Part shown: positions 8,181 to 39,104 of the stretch, one piece after another
Numbering within the stretch: the first letter of the stretch is position 1
Layout: each line of letters opens with the position of its first letter
IMG/VR virus record: IMGVR_UViG_3300045988_114702
Direction: 5' to 3' (one strand)
Source of the DNA: a virus
DNA length: 64,000 bases
Translations under genes and position numbers: made by a program
Notes under the pieces: generated by a model
Databases searched by the model: none
Told to the model about the DNA's origin: nothing
Seen by the model: the letters and a program-made list of their open reading frames with translations, nothing else

Positions 8181-8377
8181 CGATAGATCCTCCCCGACTG
8201 GCTGTCGATCAGGACAATGCGCTCTGCAATCTCAAACCCTGCGGCATCTGCCACATACCGCAGAACGTGAATAAGATCATGCACCCGTTTCTCGTCCTTC
8301 TGGATGTTATTTTCGGCACGCGCCCGGGTGGGGTCCGGCGCACCGCTGGGGTTGTGTCCTTTGCGGGTATCAGGCAT
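8177..8377 (-). CDS. Hypothetical protein (66 aa)
   Basis: ORF with operon coupling. Confidence 0.4.
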   Translation of the reverse strand: MPDTRKGHNPSGAPDPTRARAENNIQKDEKRVHDLIHVLRYVADAAGFEIAERIVLIDSQSGRIYR

Positions 8378-8564
8378 TGCTATCCCCCTTGTCCAGAATC
8401 ATATAGTACTCGTACTGGGTGCCCGGGTTGGCGTTTGGACGGCGGCGCACGATGTCAACCCGATACCCCGCTTTCAAGAGCAGCCGTCCCAACTCTAAGC
8501 GTTCATCTTCCGAGAGTCCTTTTGCCTTAGACGGCGCAAGGGAAAGTTCGATTTTAGCCAACAC
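8370..8564 (-). CDS. Hypothetical protein (64 aa)
   Basis: ORF with operon coupling. Confidence 0.4.
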   Translation of the reverse strand: MLAKIELSLAPSKAKGLSEDERLELGRLLLKAGYRVDIVRRRPNANPGTQYEYYMILDKGDSNA

Positions 8565-10749
8565 GCTTTTCCACCTCCATCAGGTCGTGCATCAGCTCGT
8601 CAACCAGCAACTTACCGGCATTCGCGCCTGTGCGAATAATGTTTCCATTTTCCTTTAACTCTGCAAACTCCTGTGCACGGATTTCTTTGGACTGCTTTGC
8701 AAAAGAAATTTCCGATGCTGTCATGCGCCCCTGCACCACCTGCTGCCATTCCTCGATGAATGGCTTGGCATCTTCCAGATCTGCATACTGGTCGTTGTTA
8801 TAGCTGCGTTTCTGCCGAACTGTACCGCCCGGCTCCACCTCCAAGGTGTACCACGGCGTATTGGGGTCAGACTTCTTTCGCAGGAAGAAAATGTAGCTTT
8901 CCCGAACAGAAATACGCTCAAAGTACCTAGTTCCACGCTGGATGCAGTGGTCAAGGAACTTGCTCTCCTGCAAAATGTCCTTTGCGCCCTCTGGCACCCG
9001 GATAATGTACTCCGCTCCATCGTACTCGTAGATTTTGCGGATCTTCTTGTAGATGTTTTCGATATGGAACTGCTTTTCCAGCTGTTCCGCTTCCTTTTCG
9101 ATAGAGCGTTTTGCACCTTTCATGACTTCCATCCGGTGCCGCTTATTGCGCTCCAGCACAAGATCATCATGCCGGCGCTTCAAGTCGAGCGGGAACATCA
9201 CGCTTTCAAGCTGCATATTCATCCCCACTTTTTCGGCCATGTCAAGGTAGTCCGACCAGTCCTGCGCAACTCTAAGTGCGATATGGCCGTTGTAGCTACC
9301 CGTGATTCGTCTTGTTTGCTGGCGGAGATATTTCAAGCTTCGCGTCATTCCGCTTTTCTGTAATGTCTTGGCCATTCCTGAAAGATTTCGGATGTTGGCC
9401 GTCATTGCCATGTTCTTGCCATTGATTGCGAGGCCGGCTTCTTTCCATTCCAGCGCATTATCCACCTCGCGGAACGACTTTTTGCTCTGCGAGACCACGG
9501 CCAGTTCCTGACGGTTTAAGCCAAACACACCGTAATAGGTCTCTGCGCGAAGATTGATGCGGGTGCTGTGTTCATATTCGTCGTACACCTGAGAGCACAG
9601 CGCATCAGCCCAGCCCGTTTTCACAAGGCTTTCGGCCATCGGATACCGATTCACGATTTCCCACTGACGAACCTCCCATGGAAAATTGAGATGATTGTCG
9701 TACTGGTACATCCATTCAGATTTCAGCACTTTCCGAACATCACTCTCAAATTGGTCAGTATGGGATGCCAATGTATACGGCTGATACGGACCAGAGGGGG
9801 CCGTCAGCATTGCGGATAACTTCGGGCGCTGGCACATAATATATTCCTCTTTTTCACTCCAGCTGCGTTTCCACTGCTTGATGGTCTTTCCGTCCGTCCA
9901 CCATATCCCCCGGCCATGAAATTCCAGTTCTGCCCGACGATTGCTGAAATCGAAATACACCAGATAGCGGCGAATCCAGACCCCATCTCCCTGCGGCTTG
10001 CTCCAAAGGAATGTCCTTGCGGCCCACAGCCTTTTGACCGAATAGCGGGTATTACGAACCTGCATTTTCTCCCCGCAGCACTCGCACACTGCCGTGCTCT
10101 TGTGCTTGAGCAGTTCTGACAGCGTATATTCGCCGCCACAACAATCGCACCTTACCCGCTGAATCGAGACCTTCTTCTCAACTCCACCGGGTTCGATTAC
10201 GTTCTGCTTGTCGTTGGTGACCCAGAGAAAGCCCGCATCACTGCACACTTTCAAAACCTGTTTTCCGAAATCCTCTGGCGGTTCCGGCAGATTCTCAAAG
10301 AGTTTCTGGGTTTCAGCCGCCTGCCGTGCATTACGCTCTTCACGCTTCTTTCTGGCATGAGCTGACAGCGCATCTTCTACAATGCCGACCAGATAACCCG
10401 GTCTGCGGTCATCAAAATAGTTTTGCAGAAGCTCCGACTCTCCCTTTGTTGCCGGCACTTCGGTCCTCCATGTCAAACACTGGCAAGGTCTGACCTCAAT
10501 TTCACGCGGCGAAAGTTCGCTCTTTTTCGGATTCTCGTTCCCACGAAGCTCCCCCGTCCAGTAACCTCCGAAAAAACGCCACACGACCAGCGGCTTTTCC
10601 TTTTTGTCCCAGACGGCCACCGTCAGCACCTTTCCCTTGATGTAGCGACCCACGCCCTGCCCCTCGGCAACTGACATACACAGCGCCGCATCCAACTCTG
10701 GCCGCTTCGGCTCCGGCGCATAAAGTTTCAATTCTTCAACCTTTTTCAT
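8554..10749 (-). CDS. Large PcfJ-like protein (731 aa)
   Basis: The C-terminal region LDHCIQRGTRYFERISVRESYIFFLRKK...WYTLEV resembles the PcfJ-like domain. An internal Cys cluster reads CDCCGG...CECCG. Confidence 0.5.
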   Translation of the reverse strand: MKKVEELKLYAPEPKRPELDAALCMSVAEGQGVGRYIKGKVLTVAVWDKKEKPLVVWRFFGGYWTGELRGNENPKKSELSPREIEVRPCQCLTWRTEVPATKGESELLQNYFDDRRPGYLVGIVEDALSAHARKKREERNARQAAETQKLFENLPEPPEDFGKQVLKVCSDAGFLWVTNDKQNVIEPGGVEKKVSIQRVRCDCCGGEYTLSELLKHKSTAVCECCGEKMQVRNTRYSVKRLWAARTFLWSKPQGDGVWIRRYLVYFDFSNRRAELEFHGRGIWWTDGKTIKQWKRSWSEKEEYIMCQRPKLSAMLTAPSGPYQPYTLASHTDQFESDVRKVLKSEWMYQYDNHLNFPWEVRQWEIVNRYPMAESLVKTGWADALCSQVYDEYEHSTRINLRAETYYGVFGLNRQELAVVSQSKKSFREVDNALEWKEAGLAINGKNMAMTANIRNLSGMAKTLQKSGMTRSLKYLRQQTRRITGSYNGHIALRVAQDWSDYLDMAEKVGMNMQLESVMFPLDLKRRHDDLVLERNKRHRMEVMKGAKRSIEKEAEQLEKQFHIENIYKKIRKIYEYDGAEYIIRVPEGAKDILQESKFLDHCIQRGTRYFERISVRESYIFFLRKKSDPNTPWYTLEVEPGGTVRQKRSYNNDQYADLEDAKPFIEEWQQVVQGRMTASEISFAKQSKEIRAQEFAELKENGNIIRTGANAGKLLVDELMHDLMEVEKRVG

Positions 10750-29776: not shown

Positions 29777-30108
29777 TACAGCTCACCTCCCATAAACAGA
29801 GTTTCCAGCACGCTCACACGCTCTTCCAGAGAGGGCGCAGCTTCATCAGCGGTCGTCCATGCTTCTGCATAGACCCACCAATCATCAGCCGCCGCCGTGA
29901 TGCTTTCCACGGTTTCCTCTGCATAATCGGAACCCAACTTGCAAAGAGCCGTGGTGCACTCCCACGAAGTACCGCCCTGCTCTCCTTCGGGAGCCTCGGT
30001 TCGTACCTCATGAGCGTCCTTACGCAGGTACAGCCAAGCCGTACCGTCCGGCAGTTTTTCCAGCGTTACCGCCTGCGGATTATGGTCAAGGTTCTCGGTA
30101 AAAATCAT
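29776..30108 (-). CDS. Acidic hypothetical protein in the XkdW position
   Basis: 110 aa. Forms an ATGA overlap with the RT stop and is followed by the XkdX-like ORF. Confidence 0.45.
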   Translation of the reverse strand: MIFTENLDHNPQAVTLEKLPDGTAWLYLRKDAHEVRTEAPEGEQGGTSWECTTALCKLGSDYAEETVESITAAADDWWVYAEAWTTADEAAPSLEERVSVLETLFMGGEL

Positions 30109-31349
30109 GCTGCTATCCTCACTTTCTTCATTGCATTTCTTTGTGTCGTTACGCGGATTGCTACTTTTGCGGCCGTGAACAGCTTTTTCTGTTTTAGGGC
30201 TTCGCTGATTGCACGAGATTTTGTCCAGTCAAAATAGCCGTTATAGCTGACCAGCTTGTATGACCGCCAGACCGGCACATATCCATTTCGTGAAACATCA
30301 GCCTTGGCTCGAATGTACTGCCGCCGAGCCCTCAGAAAAATTCTGGGGCGTATCGTGGTGTAGGTACGGTGCATCACATAGCCAGCCATATCCAAACCCG
30401 GGCATCCTTTTGCCGCTCCCGTTAGGTGTCTGCGTTGATGCTCTTCAGCGGCGCTAAGAAAGTCCACACGAACCCACTCGTTTTTTATTGTCAATCCCAG
30501 TTCGGTCAGCGCCCACTTAGTCAATTTTCGGGCTGCACTCTGTATGTCAGCCCATCGTCGGCCAAACAAAACAAGGTCATCCATATAGCTACCGCTGCGG
30601 ATCACGAATCGCGTGGATGCTCCACGGCGAATCTTTGCATAACTCATGACCTTGACCAGCATATAGCTGGCAACAAGGTTAAAAAGCCACGCTTCAAGAT
30701 AGCCGCCGATAAGCAATCCCTCACCCGGAGCCATTGCTAAAAGACATTTGACAACAGCCAGAAGCCATGTTGCTCCCGGGATTTCTTTCTGCAGGATCTT
30801 CATCACAAGTTCCTGTTTTGTGTGGGCGTATGCCCCCTGCACATCCAGCTTTATTGCATACTGTATGCCAAGACTTTTTCTGCGAAGCCAACGCTCGACT
30901 TGACGCTTCAAAGCGATTTGTCCCTTGCCGGGAATACTGGCAAATTGATACGGCAACAGTTTTGCCTGAAGCAACGGGCGAAGTCCAAGTACCGCCAAAT
31001 GCCCAAAAGCTTGGTGCATTGGACAGCAGTTAGACAGTTCCCGCCGTTTCATGCTGATTCCATCAATTCTGTAGAACACGCTCACAGGGTCAAGATCAAG
31101 GTCGTCTGTTTCTCCGTCCAACAAATCTTCTATCCGTTGCTCCATTTCAAGAGCAATCCCATTTACGGCTTCTAAACGCGGGTTCCAGTCGTTTACGCGG
31201 GCGGCGCTCGATAGTTGTGCACGGCTTACACCTCCATATTTTTCCACCGTAGCGAGGTAATCCCGGCGGAACCATTTCTTATCAAAAGCTTCAAGGACAG
31301 CACGCTCGCACATTTCATGATTGAGCGACAAGTACCTCTTTGTTTTCAT
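30105..31349 (-). CDS. Reverse transcriptase (DGR-type by context)
   Basis: YMDDLVLFG catalytic box, and upstream RT motifs (RRELSNCCPMHQAFGHLA...ASIPGKG). ATG at 31349 follows GGAGG (the ORF is open to TTG at 31382). Confidence 0.85.
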   Translation of the reverse strand: MKTKRYLSLNHEMCERAVLEAFDKKWFRRDYLATVEKYGGVSRAQLSSAARVNDWNPRLEAVNGIALEMEQRIEDLLDGETDDLDLDPVSVFYRIDGISMKRRELSNCCPMHQAFGHLAVLGLRPLLQAKLLPYQFASIPGKGQIALKRQVERWLRRKSLGIQYAIKLDVQGAYAHTKQELVMKILQKEIPGATWLLAVVKCLLAMAPGEGLLIGGYLEAWLFNLVASYMLVKVMSYAKIRRGASTRFVIRSGSYMDDLVLFGRRWADIQSAARKLTKWALTELGLTIKNEWVRVDFLSAAEEHQRRHLTGAAKGCPGLDMAGYVMHRTYTTIRPRIFLRARRQYIRAKADVSRNGYVPVWRSYKLVSYNGYFDWTKSRAISEALKQKKLFTAAKVAIRVTTQRNAMKKVRIAA

Positions 31350-31592
31350 ATCCTTAAAGCCTCCAAACTTGCTGATGTTCAACGGATTTCGGTTGCCGTT
31401 TCAGGCCTTAAATCAGGCAAAACGGATTTCTACTACTCACCGCCACGCAGTCCCAAAAACTGCGGCCACGCTCTCACCAATGCGTCCGTATATCTCGAAA
31501 CGCTCAGCTACATGGTGTCGGTATAACATGATCTTAGTGGTCAAGCCACAGGCGCAATGAAACGCTTATGCCCTTTTGAGGGCTATTTATCA

Positions 31593-31742
31593 TCAGCATT
31601 CCGGGGCACGCCGTTCCAGCTCGAGTTCGCCGGGGAATTGTTGCCATTCGCGCAAGGCAGGCCGCAGTTAGCACCGTCATTCAGGTTGCCACCGCGCCAC
31701 GGGGCGTACAGACCCGCCGAACTGGGCGAAATAAACGCAGCC
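31593..31742 (-). repeat. DGR template repeat (TR)
   Basis: Non-coding copy of VR. 22 of its 24 coding-sense adenines differ in VR. The ORF-track entry 31583-31804 is its pseudo-translation. Confidence 0.85.
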
Positions 31743-31772
31743 ACACGCCGCTTCATTGCTCCATAAAATAAT

Positions 31773-31808
31773 CGGCTTGCGCCGATGGTAAACCATCGGC
31801 GCAAGCTG
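31773..31808 (-). terminator. GC-rich hairpin (14-bp perfect stem) with T-rich trail on the minus strand
   Basis: GCTTGCGCCGATGG-TAAA-CCATCGGCGCAAGC, followed on the minus strand by GATTATTTTAT. Confidence 0.5.
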
Positions 31809-31827
31809 GGAAACGTGAACAGGGATT

Positions 31828-31863
31828 AGGGGGTTACACCCCCTCTATGTGCCTACGGCACAT
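31828..31863 (-). promoter_or_regulatory. Two tandem 7-bp hairpins with identical triloops just 3' of the VR gene stop
   Basis: AGGGGGT-TAC-ACCCCCT (31828-31844) and ATGTGCC-TAC-GGCACAT (31847-31863). Confidence 0.45.
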
Positions 31864-31865
31864 AT

Positions 31866-33593
31866 TCACCCTCTCTTTTTGCCCGAGCCAGCAAGCCGGG
31901 GCACGCCGCACCAGCCCGAGAACGCCGGGGAAACGCCGCCAAACGCGCAAGGCAGGCCGCAGCAAGCACCGCCATACAGGTAGCCACCGCACCAAGGGGC
32001 GCACAGACCCGCCGAACCGGGCGAAACAAACGCAGCCCGTACATAGGTGGAACCGCTGCCATTGAACTTTTCATACATCATGGCTTCCGTACCCAACTTG
32101 CCCAGCTTACGGATATAGTGCCACGACCAAGTCGCCTTGTCGTTCAGGTCGAAGGAGCCGGTCTGGGCATAGTCCGAGGAGATAGAACCAACCTGCTTCT
32201 CACCGCTCTTGCAGGAGAACACGTCATAGTGCCAGTGGTCATCGTCCACGATGCTGGCTTTCCACAGAGGGTCAAGCTGTTCCGTATAAGCGCCGATCTG
32301 CATCTCGATGCCGGCCACACGGTACGGATATTTTCCGTTCGTCAGATTACCCCGACATCCATCGCTATGTCCCTGCACGCCCTCTGTTGTGCCGGACTCC
32401 CACGGCATAGTAGATACCAGCATCGTGGTCGTAGTGTCGATAGGAGAATCCAACTCAAGGTTCAGAGCCACATACTCGGTCTCGCTCACGGTCACATTGG
32501 TAATGCTGGAAATCTTGGCCCAGTTGAAAATATTGTGATTATAGTCCGTGTTGCGGTCCGTTCCCGTATTCTCGCCACGCTCACCCATGCAAACAGCAGA
32601 GCCCACAAGGAAATTTGCCCCCTGCGCTTTCGTCACGAGCACTCGCTTTACTCCCGTTTCCGCCACAGCAGGGCTGTACTGGTAATTATAGACAGTGCAG
32701 CCCTCCAGCTTGCCGCTGTTGCTCAGCGTCCAATGGCGCAGCCGCCACTGCGCCAGAACATACTGCTGGTCGCAGTCAGTCCACAGGGCATCATAAGCGG
32801 TGATTTTACGAGCCAGAGGGATAGCAGCGTTGGCGCTTGTCCACGGCATCGGGGGCAGTCCAGCACCGCTGGTCATTCCACCCTTGGAATTTTTGCCGCC
32901 AAGGAAAGCCGGGTGCCATGTCAGCCAGCGGCGACTCTTATCAGGGGCCACATCGCCAGCCATAGGATCATAGCCGCCGCCCTCGAAGGTGCGGAAAGAG
33001 TTATACAGGTATGCGCCATCCTCCCACTCCTTCAGCATCAAGGACAGAGCGAAGCAGTAAACGGGTGCGGTTTCGCCGGAAAGATCAAACCCGGTTTCAC
33101 CCTCAACTGCCAGCACGTTCATCGTGCCATCTTCCAAGGACAGCGCATTGGCGCGAATGTACCATGTGAAAGGATCCTCTTCCGACCAGTCTGCGGTTTC
33201 CGGGCTGGTGTCAGTCAGAAGCGGAGCCGCTTCACGCCCGTCTGCCAGATCATCCAGCGGGGTGCCGGTGTAATCACCACTCACATCATCACTGTAGAAG
33301 CGAACGGTGTAGGTTTTGCTGCGAGCGCTCTCTGCGAGCATTTTCGCAAAGCGTTCCAGGCGCTGATACTTCGTCACGCCATCACCGGCAGACAGCGGCC
33401 ACCAGCTCCAGAAGATTTCTGTGGTATTTTTGCCATCCAGCAGACCGCGGAATGTTGCATCCACGAATTCTGCGCCGGCAGTACCGGCAGCAATGCCTGC
33501 CAAAATGTCATTTTGGCGTTTCATCTGAGCGGCCAGTTCCAGACCGGTTTCATCGCTCATAGGATGATTGATAAGTTCCCATGTGTCACCCAT
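31866..33593 (-). CDS. DGR target protein (putative receptor-binding fibre protein with variable C-terminus)
   Basis: 575 aa located in the fibre locus. The last about 50 codons are the VR (...CAPWCGGYLYGGACCGLPCAFGGVSPAFSGWCGVPRL...). Confidence 0.8.
   Translation of the reverse strand: MGDTWELINHPMSDETGLELAAQMKRQNDILAGIAAGTAGAEFVDATFRGLLDGKNTTEIFWSWWPLSAGDGVTKYQRLERFAKMLAESARSKTYTVRFYSDDVSGDYTGTPLDDLADGREAAPLLTDTSPETADWSEEDPFTWYIRANALSLEDGTMNVLAVEGETGFDLSGETAPVYCFALSLMLKEWEDGAYLYNSFRTFEGGGYDPMAGDVAPDKSRRWLTWHPAFLGGKNSKGGMTSGAGLPPMPWTSANAAIPLARKITAYDALWTDCDQQYVLAQWRLRHWTLSNSGKLEGCTVYNYQYSPAVAETGVKRVLVTKAQGANFLVGSAVCMGERGENTGTDRNTDYNHNIFNWAKISSITNVTVSETEYVALNLELDSPIDTTTTMLVSTMPWESGTTEGVQGHSDGCRGNLTNGKYPYRVAGIEMQIGAYTEQLDPLWKASIVDDDHWHYDVFSCKSGEKQVGSISSDYAQTGSFDLNDKATWSWHYIRKLGKLGTEAMMYEKFNGSGSTYVRAAFVSPGSAGLCAPWCGGYLYGGACCGLPCAFGGVSPAFSGWCGVPRLAGSGKKRG
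31888..32037 (-). repeat. DGR variable repeat (VR)
   Basis: Aligns to TR at an offset of 295 nt. There are 24 mismatches, 22 of them at TR adenines. Confidence 0.85.
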
Positions 33594-33608: not shown

Positions 33609-33872
33609 TTAGGTGCTTTTCTTGATGAAAAACGACAGTCGGCCGCTCTCGTCCGGGCCAAGTGCATAGCTTGCAGAAGCAGCGCTTGCCGCAGCCTGCT
33701 GGGCCGCAGCTGTCGTCTTGTTCAACAGATCCTTCGATGTCTCGGCAGCGGCCTTGCTGGTCTCTGCACTATCTTTCGCCGCATCCGCAACAGCTTTTGT
33801 CTGACTATACAGTTCATCCAATTTTGCTGCTGATTTCCTGCGAGCGATTGCGTAGGTCAAAATATCAATCAT
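33609..33872 (-). CDS. Small Ala/Ser-rich fibre-associated protein
   Basis: 87 aa. The C-terminus YALGPDESGRLSFFIKKST is shared with 34139-34726. Confidence 0.45.
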   Translation of the reverse strand: MIDILTYAIARRKSAAKLDELYSQTKAVADAAKDSAETSKAAAETSKDLLNKTTAAAQQAAASAASASYALGPDESGRLSFFIKKST

Positions 33873-34138: not shown

Positions 34139-34726
34139 TTAACTGCTCCTGCGAACAAAAAAGGAGAAACGGCCATCGGCATCCGGTCCGAATGCAAAAT
34201 TGATAGATGCCGCCGATCCCGCCACCTGATTGGCAATGTCCGCCGTCCGGTTCATGTAGTTCAGCGCATTTCCTTCGGATGTTCGAGCGTCTGCCGCGCT
34301 ATCCCTCGATGCACGCTCGCTTGCCGCCGCAGAAGACGCATTTTCCGTGGAGATTCTTTCGGACTTACTGGCCGCGATTGCGCTGGCATTCGCGGCAGAT
34401 GCACTCTGCGCTGCGGCCTGCTCTGAAGCGCTGGTATTGGCTACCAGCCGCTTGATTTCTTCGACGTTTTTCAGAATTGCATCTGCCACATCATCGCGGA
34501 TTGCGTAGAGCAACCGCCATTCATCAGCTCCATCCAAAACGTACTGTGCTGCCATTTCGATGCAGTATGCTTGACTGGCCGGCTTTGCGAATTTCTTGAC
34601 CTTGTACGATGAACCTGTGCTTTTGCTCGTAGGCAGTCCTTTGACATCTTCCATCGTGTCCACATAGAATGAGTACCACGCTTCGGTCTCAGTTTCCAGC
34701 AGGGTACTCGCAATCAGAATCGCCAT
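34139..34726 (-). CDS. Ala/Ser-rich fibre-associated protein
   Basis: 195 aa. The coiled A/S-rich middle and the C-terminus FAFGPDADGRFSFFVRRSS are paralogous to 33609-33872. Confidence 0.45.
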   Translation of the reverse strand: MAILIASTLLETETEAWYSFYVDTMEDVKGLPTSKSTGSSYKVKKFAKPASQAYCIEMAAQYVLDGADEWRLLYAIRDDVADAILKNVEEIKRLVANTSASEQAAAQSASAANASAIAASKSERISTENASSAAASERASRDSAADARTSEGNALNYMNRTADIANQVAGSAASINFAFGPDADGRFSFFVRRSS

Positions 34727-34737
34727 ACATTCTCCTT

Positions 34738-36078
34738 TCAGCCGATTCCATTTTCATCAGCGAATTTCAGAAGGGCTGCTCTTTCGATTTTAAGAAACTC
34801 TTCATAGTCGGCAGCGGGAAGTATCTCGAGAGCATCATCTTTTGGCAGTTCAGCCTTGATGGGAAGGCAATCCCCTATTTCGATGTACCGCCGGTTGTGA
34901 TAGTATGCGCTTGCAAGAACGCGGGCTTTATGAACCCAGCAGATGCCCGTAAAGCGTTTATTGGCTGTGCCGTACATCTCATAGTTCAAACCGGAACACC
35001 AGCCACAGCCGGCAGATACAGGGCAGTCAATACACTTCTGCTCAGACTGTGAGGTGAGGGTAATCGCATCGAGTTCTGCTTTAGCCTTGCGTTGGGAATC
35101 AGTGGTATACAGACCATCATAGACGCTGCCGAAGCGAACTTTCTTCGACTTTTCCTCGCCAATACTAATGGGTGCGTATCGAATGCAGGGGTACGCAGAT
35201 CCATCAGGAGCAAACGATAGCATAGAGCCCGTGCCACCACAAAAGTTGTGATTGTCTTTAGCTCTCCCCCCTAAGAGGCTGTCAAAAATTGTGACCAGCA
35301 CATCCAGCCTATTGTTCACAATGTAGTTAGCCACAATTTTCAATTGGCTGTACAAAACATAGCCATCTGACGGATTATAAAGAGGCTCATAAGCATAGTT
35401 ACAGGCAATGCTGTCGCATCCCTCATTCAGCATCATTATGATGCTATCTGCGATATACTTGAACGAACCGGGAACAAAAGTCATTTTCGTTGAACCGTTC
35501 CAGCCGTACTTTTTACTGTCCTGAAACGCTTTCCACGCCTTTGCGAAGCTTCCGTTTCCATGTTCATCAAGTCGGTACATATCATGAAGCTCCTGCACGC
35601 CGTCAATACTGACGGTAACGGACATCATTTCATGATATTTCTCAAAAAGGTGCTGCGCTTCAGGACTGAACCACAGCTGACCGTTTGTGGCAAACGAAAT
35701 TCTGGTAAACGGCGCAAGAGGGATACTGCGTTTCCAGCATTGCTCAAACCAGTAATCGCAGATGTATTCAATCAAGGGGGCTTCCAGCAAAGGCTCTCCC
35801 CCGATAAAGTCAAGAACAACGGCTTTTGTGTCTTGGTTGACGAAGTCAGAGGTGTTCTGCTTATACAGATCCAGCAGATAATCAACGATTCTTTTGCCGG
35901 TTTCGGGAGTCATACTCTCCGCTCCTTTGTGATGCTCGTAGCAATACGAACACCTGAGATTGCACCCGCTGGTCACCTGAAATGTAACATTGCGACAAGC
36001 ACTTCGCGTTTCAGGTAAATCACGGCAGTACAGTCTCTGGACAGAGTTTCCGTAATCCTCAAACCGTTTGCTTTTCAA
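34738..36078 (-). CDS. Radical SAM enzyme with C-terminal SPASM domain (peptide/protein maturase-like)
   Basis: CNLRCSYC (CX3CX2C). SPASM-type CGGTGSMLSFAPDGSAYPC and CIDCPVSAGCGWC. TTG at 36078 lies 9 nt after GGAGG (the ORF is open to GTG at 36132). Confidence 0.8.
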   Translation of the reverse strand: MKSKRFEDYGNSVQRLYCRDLPETRSACRNVTFQVTSGCNLRCSYCYEHHKGAESMTPETGKRIVDYLLDLYKQNTSDFVNQDTKAVVLDFIGGEPLLEAPLIEYICDYWFEQCWKRSIPLAPFTRISFATNGQLWFSPEAQHLFEKYHEMMSVTVSIDGVQELHDMYRLDEHGNGSFAKAWKAFQDSKKYGWNGSTKMTFVPGSFKYIADSIIMMLNEGCDSIACNYAYEPLYNPSDGYVLYSQLKIVANYIVNNRLDVLVTIFDSLLGGRAKDNHNFCGGTGSMLSFAPDGSAYPCIRYAPISIGEEKSKKVRFGSVYDGLYTTDSQRKAKAELDAITLTSQSEQKCIDCPVSAGCGWCSGLNYEMYGTANKRFTGICWVHKARVLASAYYHNRRYIEIGDCLPIKAELPKDDALEILPAADYEEFLKIERAALLKFADENGIG

Positions 36079-36361
36079 ACAACTGCACCTCCTTCCGTCC
36101 AAAGTCAAATTGGTATCCGTTGAAAGGTTCACTGCTCAAATCGATGTGGTTTTTCAGTACCGCGTTCTGCGCCATCTGCAGTTTCATGTGGGCCATACGG
36201 CACAGTTCCGCATAGTGCATGATAATTTCCTTTGTATCGGAGTTTGCTTTGGCGTTCAGTTGGCGGTTGAGTACTGCCATAATTTTTTCGTATGAATCAA
36301 CCTCATAAAATGCCCGTTCCACAGTCTCGCTTTCGACTTGGGACAGTTCAATAATCTTCAT
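36059..36361 (-). CDS. Small helical protein of the radical-SAM cassette
   Basis: 100 aa lying between the Cys-repeat gene and the maturase. Possibly the accessory protein of CXXX-repeat systems. Confidence 0.45.
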   Translation of the reverse strand: MKIIELSQVESETVERAFYEVDSYEKIMAVLNRQLNAKANSDTKEIIMHYAELCRMAHMKLQMAQNAVLKNHIDLSSEPFNGYQFDFGRKEVQLFEKQTV

Positions 36362-36375
36362 GTTGGCATCCTTTC

Positions 36376-36960
36376 TCAGCAGGCATCAATCTTGGGAAGT
36401 CGCCCCACGATCTGAGTATACCGGGCCCGAATTTTGTTCATGGCTCCCATTGCAGAAGTAAGTGCCCGAAGATTTTCATTGAAGTTCAGCCGAAGGTAAT
36501 CGGTTAAAGTACGAAGAACGTACCACATCGCAAAGATATCTGCATCCTCAGAGCAGGCATATTCCCCGGCACTCCGCAGTGTATCTCCACATTTCAGCTG
36601 CTTAGTGACAGGATTTGCGGAAAAATTGAACGTCCGTGCTGCCAAACCAAGGGCCAGAAGTTTTTTGCGCTCTTCGGACGCGCTCTCAATTTTGCAAGCC
36701 TCCAGCGCCGAATCGATTACAGTCAAACAGTAGATAAACCAGTTATCAAAATCCGTTGCATCAAGAGCGCAAAGGGCTCCAACATAACTAAGGCACCAAA
36801 GCAGCTTGTCTTCTCCATTGGGTGTTGCAGAAAGAAGCACATCCCAGTCCTCTGTATTTACCGGTTCCTGCTGAAGTAGTTTGATAAGCGGCAGATTGCG
36901 GAGGTATGATGCATCAACATCAGCATCAGCATTTTTTGCATAACGAACAGTCATTTCCAT
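36376..36960 (-). CDS. Hypothetical helical protein of the radical-SAM cassette
   Basis: 194 aa. No motif recognised. Confidence 0.45.
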   Translation of the reverse strand: MEMTVRYAKNADADVDASYLRNLPLIKLLQQEPVNTEDWDVLLSATPNGEDKLLWCLSYVGALCALDATDFDNWFIYCLTVIDSALEACKIESASEERKKLLALGLAARTFNFSANPVTKQLKCGDTLRSAGEYACSEDADIFAMWYVLRTLTDYLRLNFNENLRALTSAMGAMNKIRARYTQIVGRLPKIDAC

Positions 36961-36972
36961 ATCATTCTCCTA

Positions 36973-38076
36973 TTACCACAAAAGTCCTCCAGAACAATTT
37001 CCTCCACAACTCCCGCTGCAGCTACCACTACAGCTACCACTGCAGGAGCCAGAGCAACCGTCGCAACTGGTATCGCAACTGCTCGTACAGCGCTCGCCGC
37101 AGTGCGAATTGCATGAACCCTTGCAACTATTAGAACAGCCCGATTCACAGTTCAAAAGGCAACCTGAACCCGTGCAGGTTTCCTGACAGTCACTAGCGCA
37201 ATAGCTTTTGCAGTTCGTGGTACAGTTACTTGCACAGTCGTCTGCGCAATTTGCGCTACAGCTTCCCTCACAAGTACTTGAACATCCATCACAACTACCA
37301 GAACATCCTCCCTTGCAGGATGTCTTGCAATTGTTAGTGCAGTTATCCGCACACGTCTTTGTACAGCTTCCTGTGCAACTACCAGTACAAGTGCCTACGC
37401 ACGTTCCAGCGCATGTACCTGTGCAACCGCCAGCACAACTTCCCCCGCAGTCATTGGCACACGTCTTCGTACAGGTTCCTGTGCAGGTGCCGGTACAGCT
37501 GCCAGTACAGGTGCCTGTACAGGTGCTGGTACAGTCGTTGGCGCACGACTTAGTGCAGGAACCCGTGCAAGTCCCTGTGCAAGTGCTCACACAAGAGCCG
37601 GTGCATGAGCCGGTGCAATCATTGGCACAGCTTTTTGTGCACGAGCCGGTACAGCCTCCCGTACATGAGCCGGTACAGCTGGAACAGGCTGAATAGCAAC
37701 CCGTAGTGCAGAGCCCCGAGCAAGCCCCGCCGCAGCCGCTGGATGTTGCAGTTTCAGAAATCGCGCTCAATTGGCTAAGCAGTGCAGCCGCCCGGGTGAG
37801 CACATCTGCAGCGACCTTGGAGCCGTTTTCCGGTGTGATAGCGCTTCCGGTAATCGCCGAGATAGGCTGTGTAATTTTCTGGATGTGCTCATTGGTAATT
37901 TGCCTACCGGCCGCAGGGACGACAGAAAAAGAACTGATATAAGCCGCCATGCTTCCAACGCTCTGGCCCTGTCCTGTCCCTTCGCTTTTTCCGCGACGAT
38001 TAAGTTCAGCGTCCAGCTGTTTTTTAAGTTCTGTGTAGTCGGCCGAGTAAACCTTTGTGCTTCTTTGAGCCATCAC
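36973..38076 (-). CDS. CXXX-repeat protein (367 aa, 63 Cys)
   Basis: A 114-aa ordinary N-terminus is followed by 63 Cys spaced CX3 almost without interruption (CTGSCTGSCTKSCANDC...). The ATG overlaps the tail-fibre stop. Confidence 0.7.
   Translation of the reverse strand: MMAQRSTKVYSADYTELKKQLDAELNRRGKSEGTGQGQSVGSMAAYISSFSVVPAAGRQITNEHIQKITQPISAITGSAITPENGSKVAADVLTRAAALLSQLSAISETATSSGCGGACSGLCTTGCYSACSSCTGSCTGGCTGSCTKSCANDCTGSCTGSCVSTCTGTCTGSCTKSCANDCTSTCTGTCTGSCTGTCTGTCTKTCANDCGGSCAGGCTGTCAGTCVGTCTGSCTGSCTKTCADNCTNNCKTSCKGGCSGSCDGCSSTCEGSCSANCADDCASNCTTNCKSYCASDCQETCTGSGCLLNCESGCSNSCKGSCNSHCGERCTSSCDTSCDGCSGSCSGSCSGSCSGSCGGNCSGGLLW
36994..37734 (-). repeat. 12-nt-periodic coding tandem repeat (TGY-NNN-NNN-NNN)n
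   Basis: This is the DNA encoding the CXXX tract. It also produces spurious VQLPVQ-type ORFs on the opposite strand. Confidence 0.7.
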
Positions 38077-39104
38077 ACACCACCTACTCTCACCTTCACA
38101 AGCCGCAGATCCGTGCGGTTATCACCCTCACAGGCGTATCCCACAATTTTGTTCGCCGGGTACGATTCGCACGAGCCGACCGCGCGCCCAACGCCGGGCG
38201 CGCTGGACAGAACGATGTAATCGCCCGTATGGACAGGTCCAACCACTTTCGTGTGAACACGTCCTGCTAAGGACACCGGAATAAAATCGGGCAGGTTTTC
38301 CTCAAGGAAATCCTGCCCTTCAACCACTTTATTTCCACCAATGAGCATAGCGTACTCATCCGTGTGGATGCCTGCGATACGGCTAGATAGGTTCGTGGCC
38401 TTGATATACCGTTCCATCTGGCTCCCAGTATCCAGAGCGATAATATCACCGGGTTCGGTCTGCTCGCCACGCGGCATGAGCTCCGCATAGTCGTTGTAGA
38501 CCGCATCGTAGACACGCTGCGCGGAAATATCACCTGACACCGACAAAGACTTAAAGTGTGCATCACCTGCGGATGTCACATAATGTACCGTGCCGTTTGC
38601 AAAATACACCGTTCCGGTGAACGTGCCGCCCACATTGCGCATTGCGCCAAGGTTTTTGCAGGCATCAGCGGAGGTGCCAGAACCTGTACCACCGCGTTCA
38701 ATCGGAAGGTTCCCGCTTGTAATCTGGCTTGCAGAATGTTCATGCGTAGACGGTGCAAAAGCATTCGCGTGTTTACCATCAACCGTATCGGCATCACAGC
38801 CTTCCATCAGCCCGTATGCAGCCAGCAGGGCCACAATCTGTTTCGCCGTAAAATCGCTCTTAGGCAACGCGCTGTTTGCCGTTCCCTTAACGGTAGACAG
38901 GTCGGAAATGGCCTGATTCAGCAGGGCACTCAAAATATATGTAACCATGTTGAACTGCTGGCTTGTCGGCTTTCCGTTCAAACCGCCGACAATAGAAGCC
39001 CAGCCGCCTTTCCAATCCTCCAACGAAATGTCTTGCTTCACGCCAGACACAGAAAACGCCGCAGTTGCATAATCTTCAAGCGCTCCTGCACGACCTTCTG
39101 CCAT
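38073..39104 (-). CDS. Tail fibre protein
   Basis: DADTVDGKHANAFAPSTHEHSASQITSGNLPIERGGTGSGTSADACKNLG is a widespread phage fibre motif. It follows the baseplate genes. Confidence 0.7.
   Translation of the reverse strand: MAEGRAGALEDYATAAFSVSGVKQDISLEDWKGGWASIVGGLNGKPTSQQFNMVTYILSALLNQAISDLSTVKGTANSALPKSDFTAKQIVALLAAYGLMEGCDADTVDGKHANAFAPSTHEHSASQITSGNLPIERGGTGSGTSADACKNLGAMRNVGGTFTGTVYFANGTVHYVTSAGDAHFKSLSVSGDISAQRVYDAVYNDYAELMPRGEQTEPGDIIALDTGSQMERYIKATNLSSRIAGIHTDEYAMLIGGNKVVEGQDFLEENLPDFIPVSLAGRVHTKVVGPVHTGDYIVLSSAPGVGRAVGSCESYPANKIVGYACEGDNRTDLRLVKVRVGGV

Follow-up and report, generated by a model that had tools for sequence, protein, structure and literature searches.

The locus at positions 34,738 to 38,076 of the window (the whole 64,000-nt stretch of DNA that was analysed, from IMG/VR record IMGVR_UViG_3300045988_114702) raises the question of why a phage should keep, inside its tail-fibre operon, a radical SAM/SPASM maturase and a protein built on a long ladder of cysteines, and what becomes of that protein once it is made. 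The genome carrying this cassette is that of a complete temperate Faecalibacterium myovirus. We give about an even chance to the cassette being a reduced, phage-adapted CXXX-repeat radical SAM system, whose 366-aa substrate is kept in one piece and works together with the distal tail, either as part of a fibre or whisker or as an accessory. From the evidence set out below we infer that the ladder is the substrate of the maturase, that thioethers are formed on it and that the product is carried in or on the virion.

The ladder protein (36973..38076, minus strand like all the genes of the operon discussed here) is 367 aa long from the GTG at 38076, or 366 aa from the ATG at 38073. Its 63 cysteines, at residues 115-361, all fall inside the last 253 residues, with 58 of the 62 Cys-to-Cys intervals being CX3, three CX2 and one CX4, exactly as counted in the preliminary description; when these 253 residues are shuffled 20,000 times, the number of CX3 intervals is 6.6 +/- 2.4, with a maximum of 18. 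The ladder is entered through a motif, SSGCGGACSGLCTTGCYSAC, that begins at residue 112 and has the invariant form C-x-[SGA]-[AS]-C-[ST]-G-[LMA]-C, and the C-terminus reads ...CSGSCSGSCSGSCSGSCGGNCSGGLLW, with the aromatic tail GGLLW at its end. The cysteine codons are mixed (33 TGC and 30 TGT), and tandem repeats at the DNA level are weak. The repeat model TIGR04114 matches the ladder at 36.5 bits (E 4e-9, cutoff 20), and the protein also matches phrog_6085. AF2 predicts a three-helix fold for the N-terminal domain, residues ~10-110 (pLDDT 84-94), in which E24, R27, R28 and K67 are invariant, and gives the ladder part a pLDDT of 35-55 with no confident fold. No known tail protein resembles the N-domain in structure, and none is matched by the ladder protein in fold or sequence.

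The neighbours of this gene place it among tail genes. Directly upstream is a gene for a 343-aa tail-fibre-like protein (38073..39104) with weak PHROG tail-fibre matches; the ladder gene start overlaps its TGA stop and is preceded by an AGGTGG ribosome-binding site. Most viral loci, and many distant prophages as well, have a homologue of this fibre gene immediately before the ladder or cassette. There follow p194 (36376..36960), p100 (36059..36361) and the maturase gene (34738..36078), with junctions that are overlapping or at most 14 nt long and have ribosome-binding sites, and neither a strong internal terminator nor an internal promoter signal was found in the operon. Directly downstream of the maturase gene, after a gap of 11 nt, comes the gene for a 195-aa coiled-coil tail-fibre-like protein (34139..34726; PHROG tail and tail-fibre matches), which is the conserved downstream neighbour of the cassette within the Faecalibacterium phage group. 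The C-terminal motif GPDxxGRxSFF of this protein is found again in the ORF at 33609-33872. The DGR beside the operon is real, 21 of 23 TR/VR mismatches falling at TR adenines. All ORFs and coordinates of the preliminary description are correct, and its placing of the cassette within a tail-fibre operon adjoining a DGR, with the ladder start overlapping the fibre-gene stop, is borne out.

The maturase is best read as 446 aa from the TTG at 36078, the start chosen earlier, because GGAAGGAGG lies 7-8 nt upstream; the alternative GTG at 36132 given by the ORF finder has no such ribosome-binding site. Both the CNLRCSYC motif (C57/C61/C64, CX3CX2C) and the full SPASM pattern already described are present, the latter as a seven-Cys motif for two auxiliary clusters (C298...G311xxxxC316; C367xxC370x5C376xxC379; C398), and all the cluster cysteines are invariant across 10 homologues of 48-80% identity. 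Besides Pfam Radical_SAM and Fer4_12 and phrog_1802, by far the best family match is a full-length one to TIGR04115 (295 bits, E 1e-87), on which a classical enzyme (locus L120) scores 490.6 bits; 295 bits is under the 350 cutoff, and the phage enzyme belongs to a sister clade and not to the equivalog itself. The next-best family is PapB NF047865, at 136 bits against a cutoff of 340, and the QhpD model TIGR03906 gives 72.6 bits. The closest solved structure by sequence is CteB (5WGG, E 1e-24), over the radical SAM core and SPASM domain. The enzyme ends ~35 residues beyond its TIGR04115 match and has no match to the TIGR04119 domain.

The two genes between ladder and maturase had been put down as unknown helical proteins, which stands for p194 and falls for p100. 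The helical p194 is a narrow orphan with no match in NCBIfam, Pfam, PHROGs or PDB sequences, and a search of 1.84 billion proteins yields just 41 cluster representatives for it; set against the TIGR04119 domain and the positional equivalents in other lineages it reaches an hhalign probability of 0.2%, and tblastn finds no match to it in L030-L032. It is a lineage-restricted, facultative fourth gene of the cassette, and L075, L076 and L083-L087 are among the loci without any gene between ladder and p100. For p100 itself there is no direct NCBIfam match, TIGR04116 being missed even at E<=10. When alignments of phage-type and classical proteins are compared by hhalign, however, they match over the full length with 96.8% probability (E 3e-10), and TIGR04116 (cutoff 50) gives 58-96 bits for the classical-locus proteins that were reached by iterative profile search. 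By these profile comparisons p100 is a putative homologue, remote, divergent and outside the curated model, of the 'CXXX repeat peptide modification system protein' (TIGR04116). Its predicted fold is a helical hairpin with a small three-stranded sheet (AF2 pLDDT 90).

That the ladder ORF might not be conserved in relatives, and so might not be translated, had been named as a way in which the whole idea could fail; in fact 49 of the 51 related loci in IMG/VR carry the ORF unbroken. Six of nine relatives compared retain 63/63 cysteines, and all 63 are kept at 61-67% ladder identity. The dN/dS of the protein is 0.06-0.31, with 0.13-0.16 for the ladder and 0.16-0.31 for its non-Cys positions, and the gene is under purifying selection; the cassette genes as a set are real, intact, selected and co-inherited. 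We also considered whether the ladder is an oddity of one phage and rejected this, as long ladders with the same conserved three-helix domain are widespread in Clostridia prophages (140-496 aa, 11-95 Cys), the domain lying C-terminal of the ladder in some lineages. No isolated or cultured phage carrying the system was found.

A region that is 25% cysteine with small polar residues between, and that has no predicted fold of its own, could also be a metallothionein-like, metal- or Fe-S-binding tail appendage, in which free thiols hold Zn, Fe, Cu or clusters, and the maturase modifies a few sites or serves another substrate. The hosts are strict anaerobes, in which thiols stay reduced, and this would suit such an appendage. 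Metallothioneins, however, use CXC and CXXC, and CX3 is an atypical spacing for a metal cluster; moreover, in essentially every locus the ladder is inherited together with the maturase and the TIGR04116-like gene, and the unit composition shared with the classical radical SAM target peptides points to a common enzymatic modification. On balance we find metal binding improbable.

Comparison across loci bears on where the product acts. Tail-fibre or baseplate genes adjoin 32 of the 43 long-ladder loci and none of the 36 loci that have a short peptide or no peptide at all (Fisher p = 6e-13), and the association of long ladders with tail modules is recurrent. Many of the 11 long-ladder loci with no identified tail gene are truncated contigs; L062 and L073 were scanned and gave no tail match. 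The order fibre, ladder, (p194), p100, maturase, coiled-coil fibre, DGR target persists where the tail proteins are just 33-48% identical (L041, L052). In the distant loci L066 and L095 a tape measure, baseplate wedge, baseplate and tail fibre lie directly upstream of the cassette, and in L084, L079 and L072 the upstream genes are of siphovirus minor-tail and fibre type.

Genes near tail fibres can be morons, and the cassette might be a conflict gene set, used in anti-defence, superinfection exclusion or the manipulation of the host, which simply fills the variable region downstream of the fibre gene. It is indeed mosaic: identity in L007-L019 and similar loci is 93-100% in the flanks, 77-80% for the maturase and only 48-51% for p100, a rapid turnover typical of conflict and host-range loci. 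Receptor-binding tail parts such as the adjoining DGR target would, however, be equally expected to diverge fast, and the tight translational and operon coupling, the small compositional contrast (GC 0.49-0.51, against 0.51-0.55 in adjacent 2-kb windows) and the holding of the same slot in very distant phages make a moron quite improbable.

The exported short-peptide systems, from which the whole family descends or to which it is sister, suggest another kind of product. Here the cassette would be a phage-carried RiPP system: the N-domain would be a long leader, and the ladder, as one core or several, would be modified, released at lysis and cut by host proteases, giving a non-virion antimicrobial, signal or metal chelator that aids the lysogen or the phage. 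Several features fit. The ladder is predicted to be disordered, the inverted domain order recalls RiPP followers, and the substrate in L043-L051, a very large AT-rich phage group, is of classical size (108 aa, 14 Cys), with no recognisable tail genes nearby. The N-domain is seen only joined to ladders and so could serve solely as a leader by which the maturase recognises its substrate, with no part in docking to the virion. On the other side, no transporter-sized or peptidase gene is found in any phage-type locus, no repeated cleavage motif is visible on reading the ladder, and its conserved length and 63 cysteines are unexpected for a multi-core precursor that is cut into pieces. The coupling of the ladder to the fibre gene speaks against it as well, as does the distal-tail position, which is kept in myo- and sipho-type prophages of many families and where short-peptide loci never occur. 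We therefore regard a RiPP as unlikely. Among the readings first offered for this DNA, the comparative context favours a crosslinked fibre or whisker, and the lack of an exporter and the retention of 63 cysteines disfavour an exported multi-core RiPP.

For an uncleaved substrate that functions at the distal tail, the following course of events may be proposed. The ladder gene would be translated late, coupled to the upstream tail-fibre gene, and its folded N-domain and entry motif would give the protein a recognition element of its own, in the role that a leader has in RiPPs (or, in the C-terminal version, a follower). The maturase, which has no fused RRE and would be aided by p100, would move along the ladder modifying cysteines, most likely leaving one short-range intramolecular thioether per CX3 unit, and these thioethers would staple Gly-centred turns in series into a rod that resists reduction and proteases. 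As there is neither a leader peptidase nor an exporter, we propose that the modified protein is neither cleaved nor secreted; it would join the tail-fibre apparatus, perhaps via the N-domain and/or the short aromatic C-terminal tail. That serial covalent stapling yields, in the tailed phages of anaerobic Firmicutes, a filament of the tail-fibre apparatus with tens of thioether or other Cys-derived crosslinks is a tentative suggestion, short of an even chance, and the modification may be something other than a crosslink.

This locus puts an orphan radical SAM family, known only bioinformatically, into a biological context and offers for it a putative substrate that is both tractable and very large. 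If the proposal is true, the ladder protein would be the first enzymatically crosslinked 'RiPP-like' structural protein of a virion, the CXXX-repeat family would receive its first function and chemistry, and how long the appendage is would depend on the number of ladder units, which runs from 13 to more than 90. A ladder on the virion would mean that RiPP-type maturation machinery can be used for building viral structural proteins. This would suit strictly anaerobic hosts, in which disulfides cannot be used and an extracellular appendage would be hardened in the gut by a redox-inert crosslink. A CX3-stapling enzyme that works serially would also be of interest to peptide engineers. There is a practical side too, in that cassettes of this kind lie in prophages of Faecalibacterium and many gut Clostridia, where genome-mining tools could count them among ranthipeptide or antimicrobial BGCs. 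Genomic studies of Faecalibacterium already read 'ranthipeptide BGCs' as possible antimicrobials (PMC12802319, PMC11169845); such calls may include the ladder cassette, and the antimicrobial reading would be altered if some of them prove to be parts of tail modules.

Among known systems the nearest is the CXXX-repeat system, which is defined bioinformatically by the target repeat TIGR04114, the radical SAM enzyme TIGR04115, the associated protein TIGR04116 and the maturase domain TIGR04119; the preliminary description had named the trio correctly, and the HMM searches gave the TIGR04114 and TIGR04115 matches reported above. Our literature search found no paper on the chemistry of this system or of TIGR04115, and the family is known though uncharacterised; its apparent use in the building or decoration of a phage tail is absent from the literature searched. 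Judged by profiles and gene content, the phage cassette is a divergent, reduced form of it: the CXXX-type assignment holds in that TIGR04115 is the best family and TIGR04114 is passed, whereas full membership does not, given the sub-cutoff maturase and the missing TIGR04119 and exporter. The CX3 units have the same composition in both (T/S/A/G at the first position, Gly in 40-46% at the second, S/T/G at the third), and in both the genes for target, radical SAM enzyme and small partner are adjacent. The phage substrate, however, has 366 aa and 63 cysteines and is joined to a folded domain of ~110 aa, whereas most classical peptides have 47-72 aa and 6-11 cysteines, with sizes of up to 138 aa and 16 cysteines where the N-terminus is signal- or TAT-like, so that the target is several-fold longer, as had been supposed. 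TIGR04119 is present at 260 bits in the classical locus L120, and classical loci come with an ABC exporter; both are missing from the phage type, which is embedded in tail modules and carries the extra orphan p194.

For the chemistry, the nearest characterised or solved relatives, PapB, CteB and QhpD, are all thioether formers and may provide a lead. Of the characterised enzyme families, that of PapB is the closest by HMM score. PapB is a SPASM enzyme, carries two auxiliary clusters and works repeatedly on six CXXXD motifs, and its substrate binding is ascribed to an RRE (PMC12373016). It differs in that its product from PapA (freyrasin) is a small peptide and in that it requires an Asp/Glu acceptor C-terminal to the Cys; only ~19% of CX3 units in this ladder hold Asp or Glu, so that thioether crosslinks, as first suggested, are plausible but PapB-type Cys-to-Asp/Glu chemistry cannot be general. 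Nor is an RRE-like element found in the phage maturase, by alignment to CteB, or in p100, by PDB structure search (best E-value 0.41). The maturase aligns to CteB, the SCIFF enzyme, only from chain residue 90, past the N-terminal RRE of ~90 residues, which has no counterpart in it. SCIFF peptides have six Cys in about 45 aa. QhpD, another SPASM radical SAM enzyme, puts Cys thioethers into a protein subunit that is not exported and is kept in a larger assembly. Its substrate QhpC, the gamma-subunit of quinohemoprotein amine dehydrogenase, is a small, non-viral enzyme subunit with three to four crosslinks to Asp/Glu and no repeat ladder, and the pair is the closest conceptual precedent for the crosslinking of a structural polypeptide.

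The Cys-ladder protein is encoded on the minus strand at 36973-38076 (367 aa from a GTG start, 366 aa from the ATG at 38073), and recounting the ORF bore out the preliminary description of it in counts, spacings, C-terminus and coordinates. Its 63 cysteines lie between residues 115 and 361, and the 62 intervals between them comprise 58 CX3, three CX2 and one CX4; over 20,000 shuffles of the 253-residue region, CX3 spacings numbered 6.6 +/- 2.4 and never exceeded 18. The ladder start is preceded by an AGGTGG site and overlaps the TGA of the upstream gene (38073-39104), which encodes a 343-aa tail-fibre-like protein, while the remaining junctions of the cassette have gaps of at most 14 nt, each with a good ribosome-binding site. 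For the radical SAM/SPASM maturase (rSAM; 34738-36078), TTG 36078 is most probably the start, as had been proposed, because GGAAGGAGG lies just upstream. No strong terminator was found on the minus strand from 39104 to 34139. A plus-strand ORF of 162 aa lies opposite the ladder gene at 37208-37696, and the related loci L007, L010, L019 and L022 have one of 241 aa; these are not genes but arise from the repetitive, stop-poor sequence that codes for the ladder.

A related rSAM (45-99% identity) is encoded in 51 IMG/VR loci, and the ladder ORF is intact, with 13-64 Cys, in 49 of them, which disposes of the earlier concern that it might not be conserved as an ORF. The protein of L030, at 158 aa with 13 Cys, is among the short natural versions. 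All 63 cysteines are kept in comparison with relatives whose ladders are 61-67% identical. In those comparisons with unsaturated synonymous sites, to which the values are restricted, dN/dS is 0.06-0.15 for the N-terminal domain that precedes the ladder (the N-domain), 0.13-0.16 for the ladder and 0.16-0.31 for its non-Cys positions. Birth of the ladder by recent DNA repeat expansion is ruled out by the mixed Cys codons (33 TGC, 30 TGT), by the saturated synonymous sites between relatives and by TRF, which found only short and weak tandem arrays. The ladder is an old feature of the protein and a maintained one. Conserved throughout the family are the N-domain of about 110 aa and an invariant ladder entry, C-x3-C-x-G-x-C-x3-C, to which C115, C119, G121 and C123 belong in the window's protein; the Faecalibacterium group also keeps a short aromatic C-terminal tail (e.g. 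LLW, LFF, FLF or VHW).

The preliminary description had proposed comparison with the models of the CXXX-repeat radical SAM system, and this comparison placed both partners. For the rSAM the best NCBIfam family is TIGR04115 ('radical SAM peptide maturase, CXXX-repeat target family'), matched end-to-end at E 1e-87 and 295 bits, a score below the curated cutoff of 350 bits, with PapB second at 136 bits; on the TIGR04114 repeat model the ladder scores 36.5 bits, above the cutoff of 20. The alternative that the enzyme is an anaerobic sulfatase maturase is ruled out, the anSME models scoring only 43-60 bits. The CX3CX2C motif and the full set of seven SPASM cysteines are retained, and the alignment of the enzyme to CteB (5WGG) begins only at residue 90 of the CteB chain, so it lacks a fused RRE.

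The two small proteins between ladder and enzyme had both been described as unknown; one remains an orphan and the other does not. The 100-aa p100 (36059-36361) has no direct NCBIfam match, but iterative searching with a profile of its phage homologues led to small proteins of classical CXXX-repeat loci that score 58-96 bits on TIGR04116, and an independent profile-profile comparison of the p100 type with the classical proteins gave 96.8% probability (E 3e-10) over the full length. It is therefore a divergent 'CXXX repeat peptide modification system protein'. Its predicted structure combines a helical hairpin and a small sheet (pLDDT 90); this fold, with only generic coiled-coil structural matches, gives no support to a discrete RRE. 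The other, p194 (36376-36960), is an orphan of narrow distribution, for which 1.84 billion proteins yielded 41 representatives. hhalign rules it out as a detached TIGR04119 maturase domain (probability 0.2%) and detects no similarity to the helical proteins of 146-195 aa that occupy the same slot in other lineages.

The N-domain is predicted confidently by AF2 (pLDDT 84-94), with helices at residues 10-28, 61-75 and 89-104; no confident fold was obtained for the ladder. The N-domain was rejected as a known tail-fibre anchor or solved fold, since nothing in the PDB matched it (best E 2.9), and a BFVD search with the fold returned uncharacterised homologues only, one of them auto-named 'TNFR-Cys domain-containing protein' in UniProt, a misleading label. 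Its profile finds 152 database proteins, all labelled 'hypothetical'. A Pfam search gave no family match for the ladder protein, p194 or p100. Some database homologues of the ladder protein (P0001, P0017, P0030, P0070 and others) carry the precomputed tag PF27846.1; a search of three of these with the local Pfam copy did not recover it even at E<=10, so the Cys-repeat or the N-domain may already have a recent Pfam entry.

A wider scan, with one genome per species, showed three classes of ladder locus. The first, found in many Clostridia, has long ladder proteins with the same N-domain (140-496 aa, 11-95 Cys), sometimes split into a gene for the N-domain with a short ladder and a following pure ladder gene. 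Such two-gene substrates are seen in L072, L077, L078, L083, L086, L088 and L091, the first product having 11-18 Cys and mostly ending …GCAxS[ST]M…, the second having 41-64 Cys and mostly ending …GQSTVxV…; a gene for a beta-rich protein of about 100 aa separates the substrate from the TIGR04116-like gene in L072, L078, L086 and L091. In L070, an ORF that runs off the contig end (4255-5388; at least 378 aa and at least 95 Cys, 93 CX3) lacks the N-domain and is composed of near-identical 28-aa super-repeats (…CSTVCWGACTGTCSSSCGAECSQT…). The second class, in Desulfosporosinus, Desulfocucumis, Brevibacillus and Clostridium, inverts the order: in L093-L097 and L107 an N-terminal ladder is followed by a conserved C-terminal three-helix domain and the gene lies downstream of the rSAM, an architecture that parallels RiPP 'follower' peptides. 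The host of L097 is a Brevibacillus, an aerobic genus unlike the other ladder hosts. The third class consists of the classical peptides, most of 47-72 aa with 6-11 Cys and often multicopy, a few with signal- or TAT-like N-termini reaching 94-138 aa and up to 16 Cys.

The window is a complete temperate myovirus, with large terminase, portal, protease, major head, sheath, tape measure, baseplate wedge, endolysin-like peptidase and integrase genes. Prophage copies occur in MAGs of Faecalibacterium, with rSAM identity of up to 97%, and also in the complete F. prausnitzii chromosome NZ_CP186691 (L059), where it is 74%, and in Gemmiger formicilis, where it is 49%; locus L058 is from G. formicilis DFI.6.10. 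The cassette was not found in any isolated phage, and megablast of the region gave no match among GenBank phages; the sole GenBank phage match is MT835573, a faecal contig without annotation, and FP_Brigit, the nearest phage with a name, has only 32% identity in baseplate J. Adjoining the cassette is a complete DGR (30105-33593) with a reverse transcriptase (30105-31382), a template repeat (TR; 31594-31742) and a variable repeat (31889-32037) at the C-terminus of a 575-aa target, phrog_17147; 21 of the 23 mismatches between the repeats fall at TR adenines. About 60 nt 3' of the target stop, and just 5' of the TR, there is a strong GC-rich hairpin of 14 bp (31806-31775). The 195-aa coiled-coil protein encoded downstream of the rSAM (34139-34726) and the 87-aa product of 33609-33872 have in common an Ala/Ser-rich coiled-coil sequence and a C-terminal GPDxxGRxSFFxxxS, and have the look of paralogues, both of them small proteins of a fibre or whisker.

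In the Faecalibacterium phage group the order fibre, ladder, p194, p100, rSAM, coiled-coil fibre, DGR target persists even at 33-48% tail-protein identity. In genera further away, at L066 of Vallitalea and L095 of Desulfocucumis, the cassette comes immediately after genes for tape measure, tail protein, baseplate wedge, baseplate protein and tail fibre; in L084, L079 and L072, where the wedge is absent, it follows siphovirus-type minor-tail and fibre genes. Within the fetched stretch a tail gene accompanies 32 of 43 long-ladder genome loci, many of the other 11 being truncated contigs, as against none of 36 short-peptide or no-peptide loci (Fisher p = 6e-13). The cassette itself is mosaic: across 34139-39104, relatives L007-L019, L027, L033, L039 and L042 have flanking fibre genes 93-100% identical to those of the window, with the rSAM at 77-80%, p194 at 76-82% and p100 at 48-51%. 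Rapid turnover of this sort is common in tail host-interaction regions. In L023 and L024 the N-terminal two-thirds of the ladder protein match the window (N-domain 99%), while its C-terminal third is of the L021 type, as are p194, p100 and the rSAM; this places a recombination breakpoint within the ladder, close to a conserved CDGCSS[ST]CEG segment. A rival to a part in the virion is that the cassette is a moron.

Genomic context is the key discriminator among the readings. The most serious rival, that the ladder protein is the precursor of a released RiPP, earns that place because the N-domain never occurs without an attached ladder among its profile matches, and because a group of AT-rich phages of very large size (L043-L051, on IMG/VR contigs of up to 179 kb; rSAM 46% identical) has a classical-sized substrate of 108 aa and 14 Cys, with the same entry motif, downstream of the rSAM and no recognisable tail genes nearby. 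The rSAM ORF of this group seems broken under genetic code 11 (in L043, pieces 8196-8975 and 9129-9377), which may reflect stop-codon recoding. Our best reading, for virion role and chemistry alike, is that the ladder protein is a substrate left uncleaved, in which the folded domain and entry motif would stand in for a RiPP leader; the rSAM together with p100 would modify the ladder cysteines in series, and the modified product would act with the distal tail. A metal-binding appendage is a further rival.

As to the chemistry, thioether formation at Cys is the activity of all the nearest characterised relatives of the rSAM (PMC12373016; HMM and structure matches). PapB requires Asp or Glu as the acceptor, on the C-terminal side of the Cys (PMC12373016); such a residue is present in only 17-20% of the CX3 units. 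Long substrates have units of the same composition as short ones (T/S/A/G, then Gly, then S/T/G), which suggests that the two share one chemistry, of a non-PapB kind, acting at a turn centred on Gly; our guess would be a thioether to a carbon of Ser, Thr or Gly. The classical rSAM owes its greater length, about 720 aa, to a second maturase domain, TIGR04119 (260 bits for the enzyme of the classical locus L120), and it is followed by an ABC exporter; the phage type has neither. Literature searches on the CXXX repeat and TIGR04115 found no experimental paper on a CXXX-repeat radical SAM system, and those on ranthipeptides and phage, SPASM and tail fibre, RiPP and prophage, and thioether and virion found no description of the present one. 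What is new relative to the CXXX-repeat system is the giant substrate fused to a folded domain, the absence from the locus of both the second maturase domain and the exporter, the recurrent position in phage tail modules, and the wide spread in prophages of gut Clostridia.
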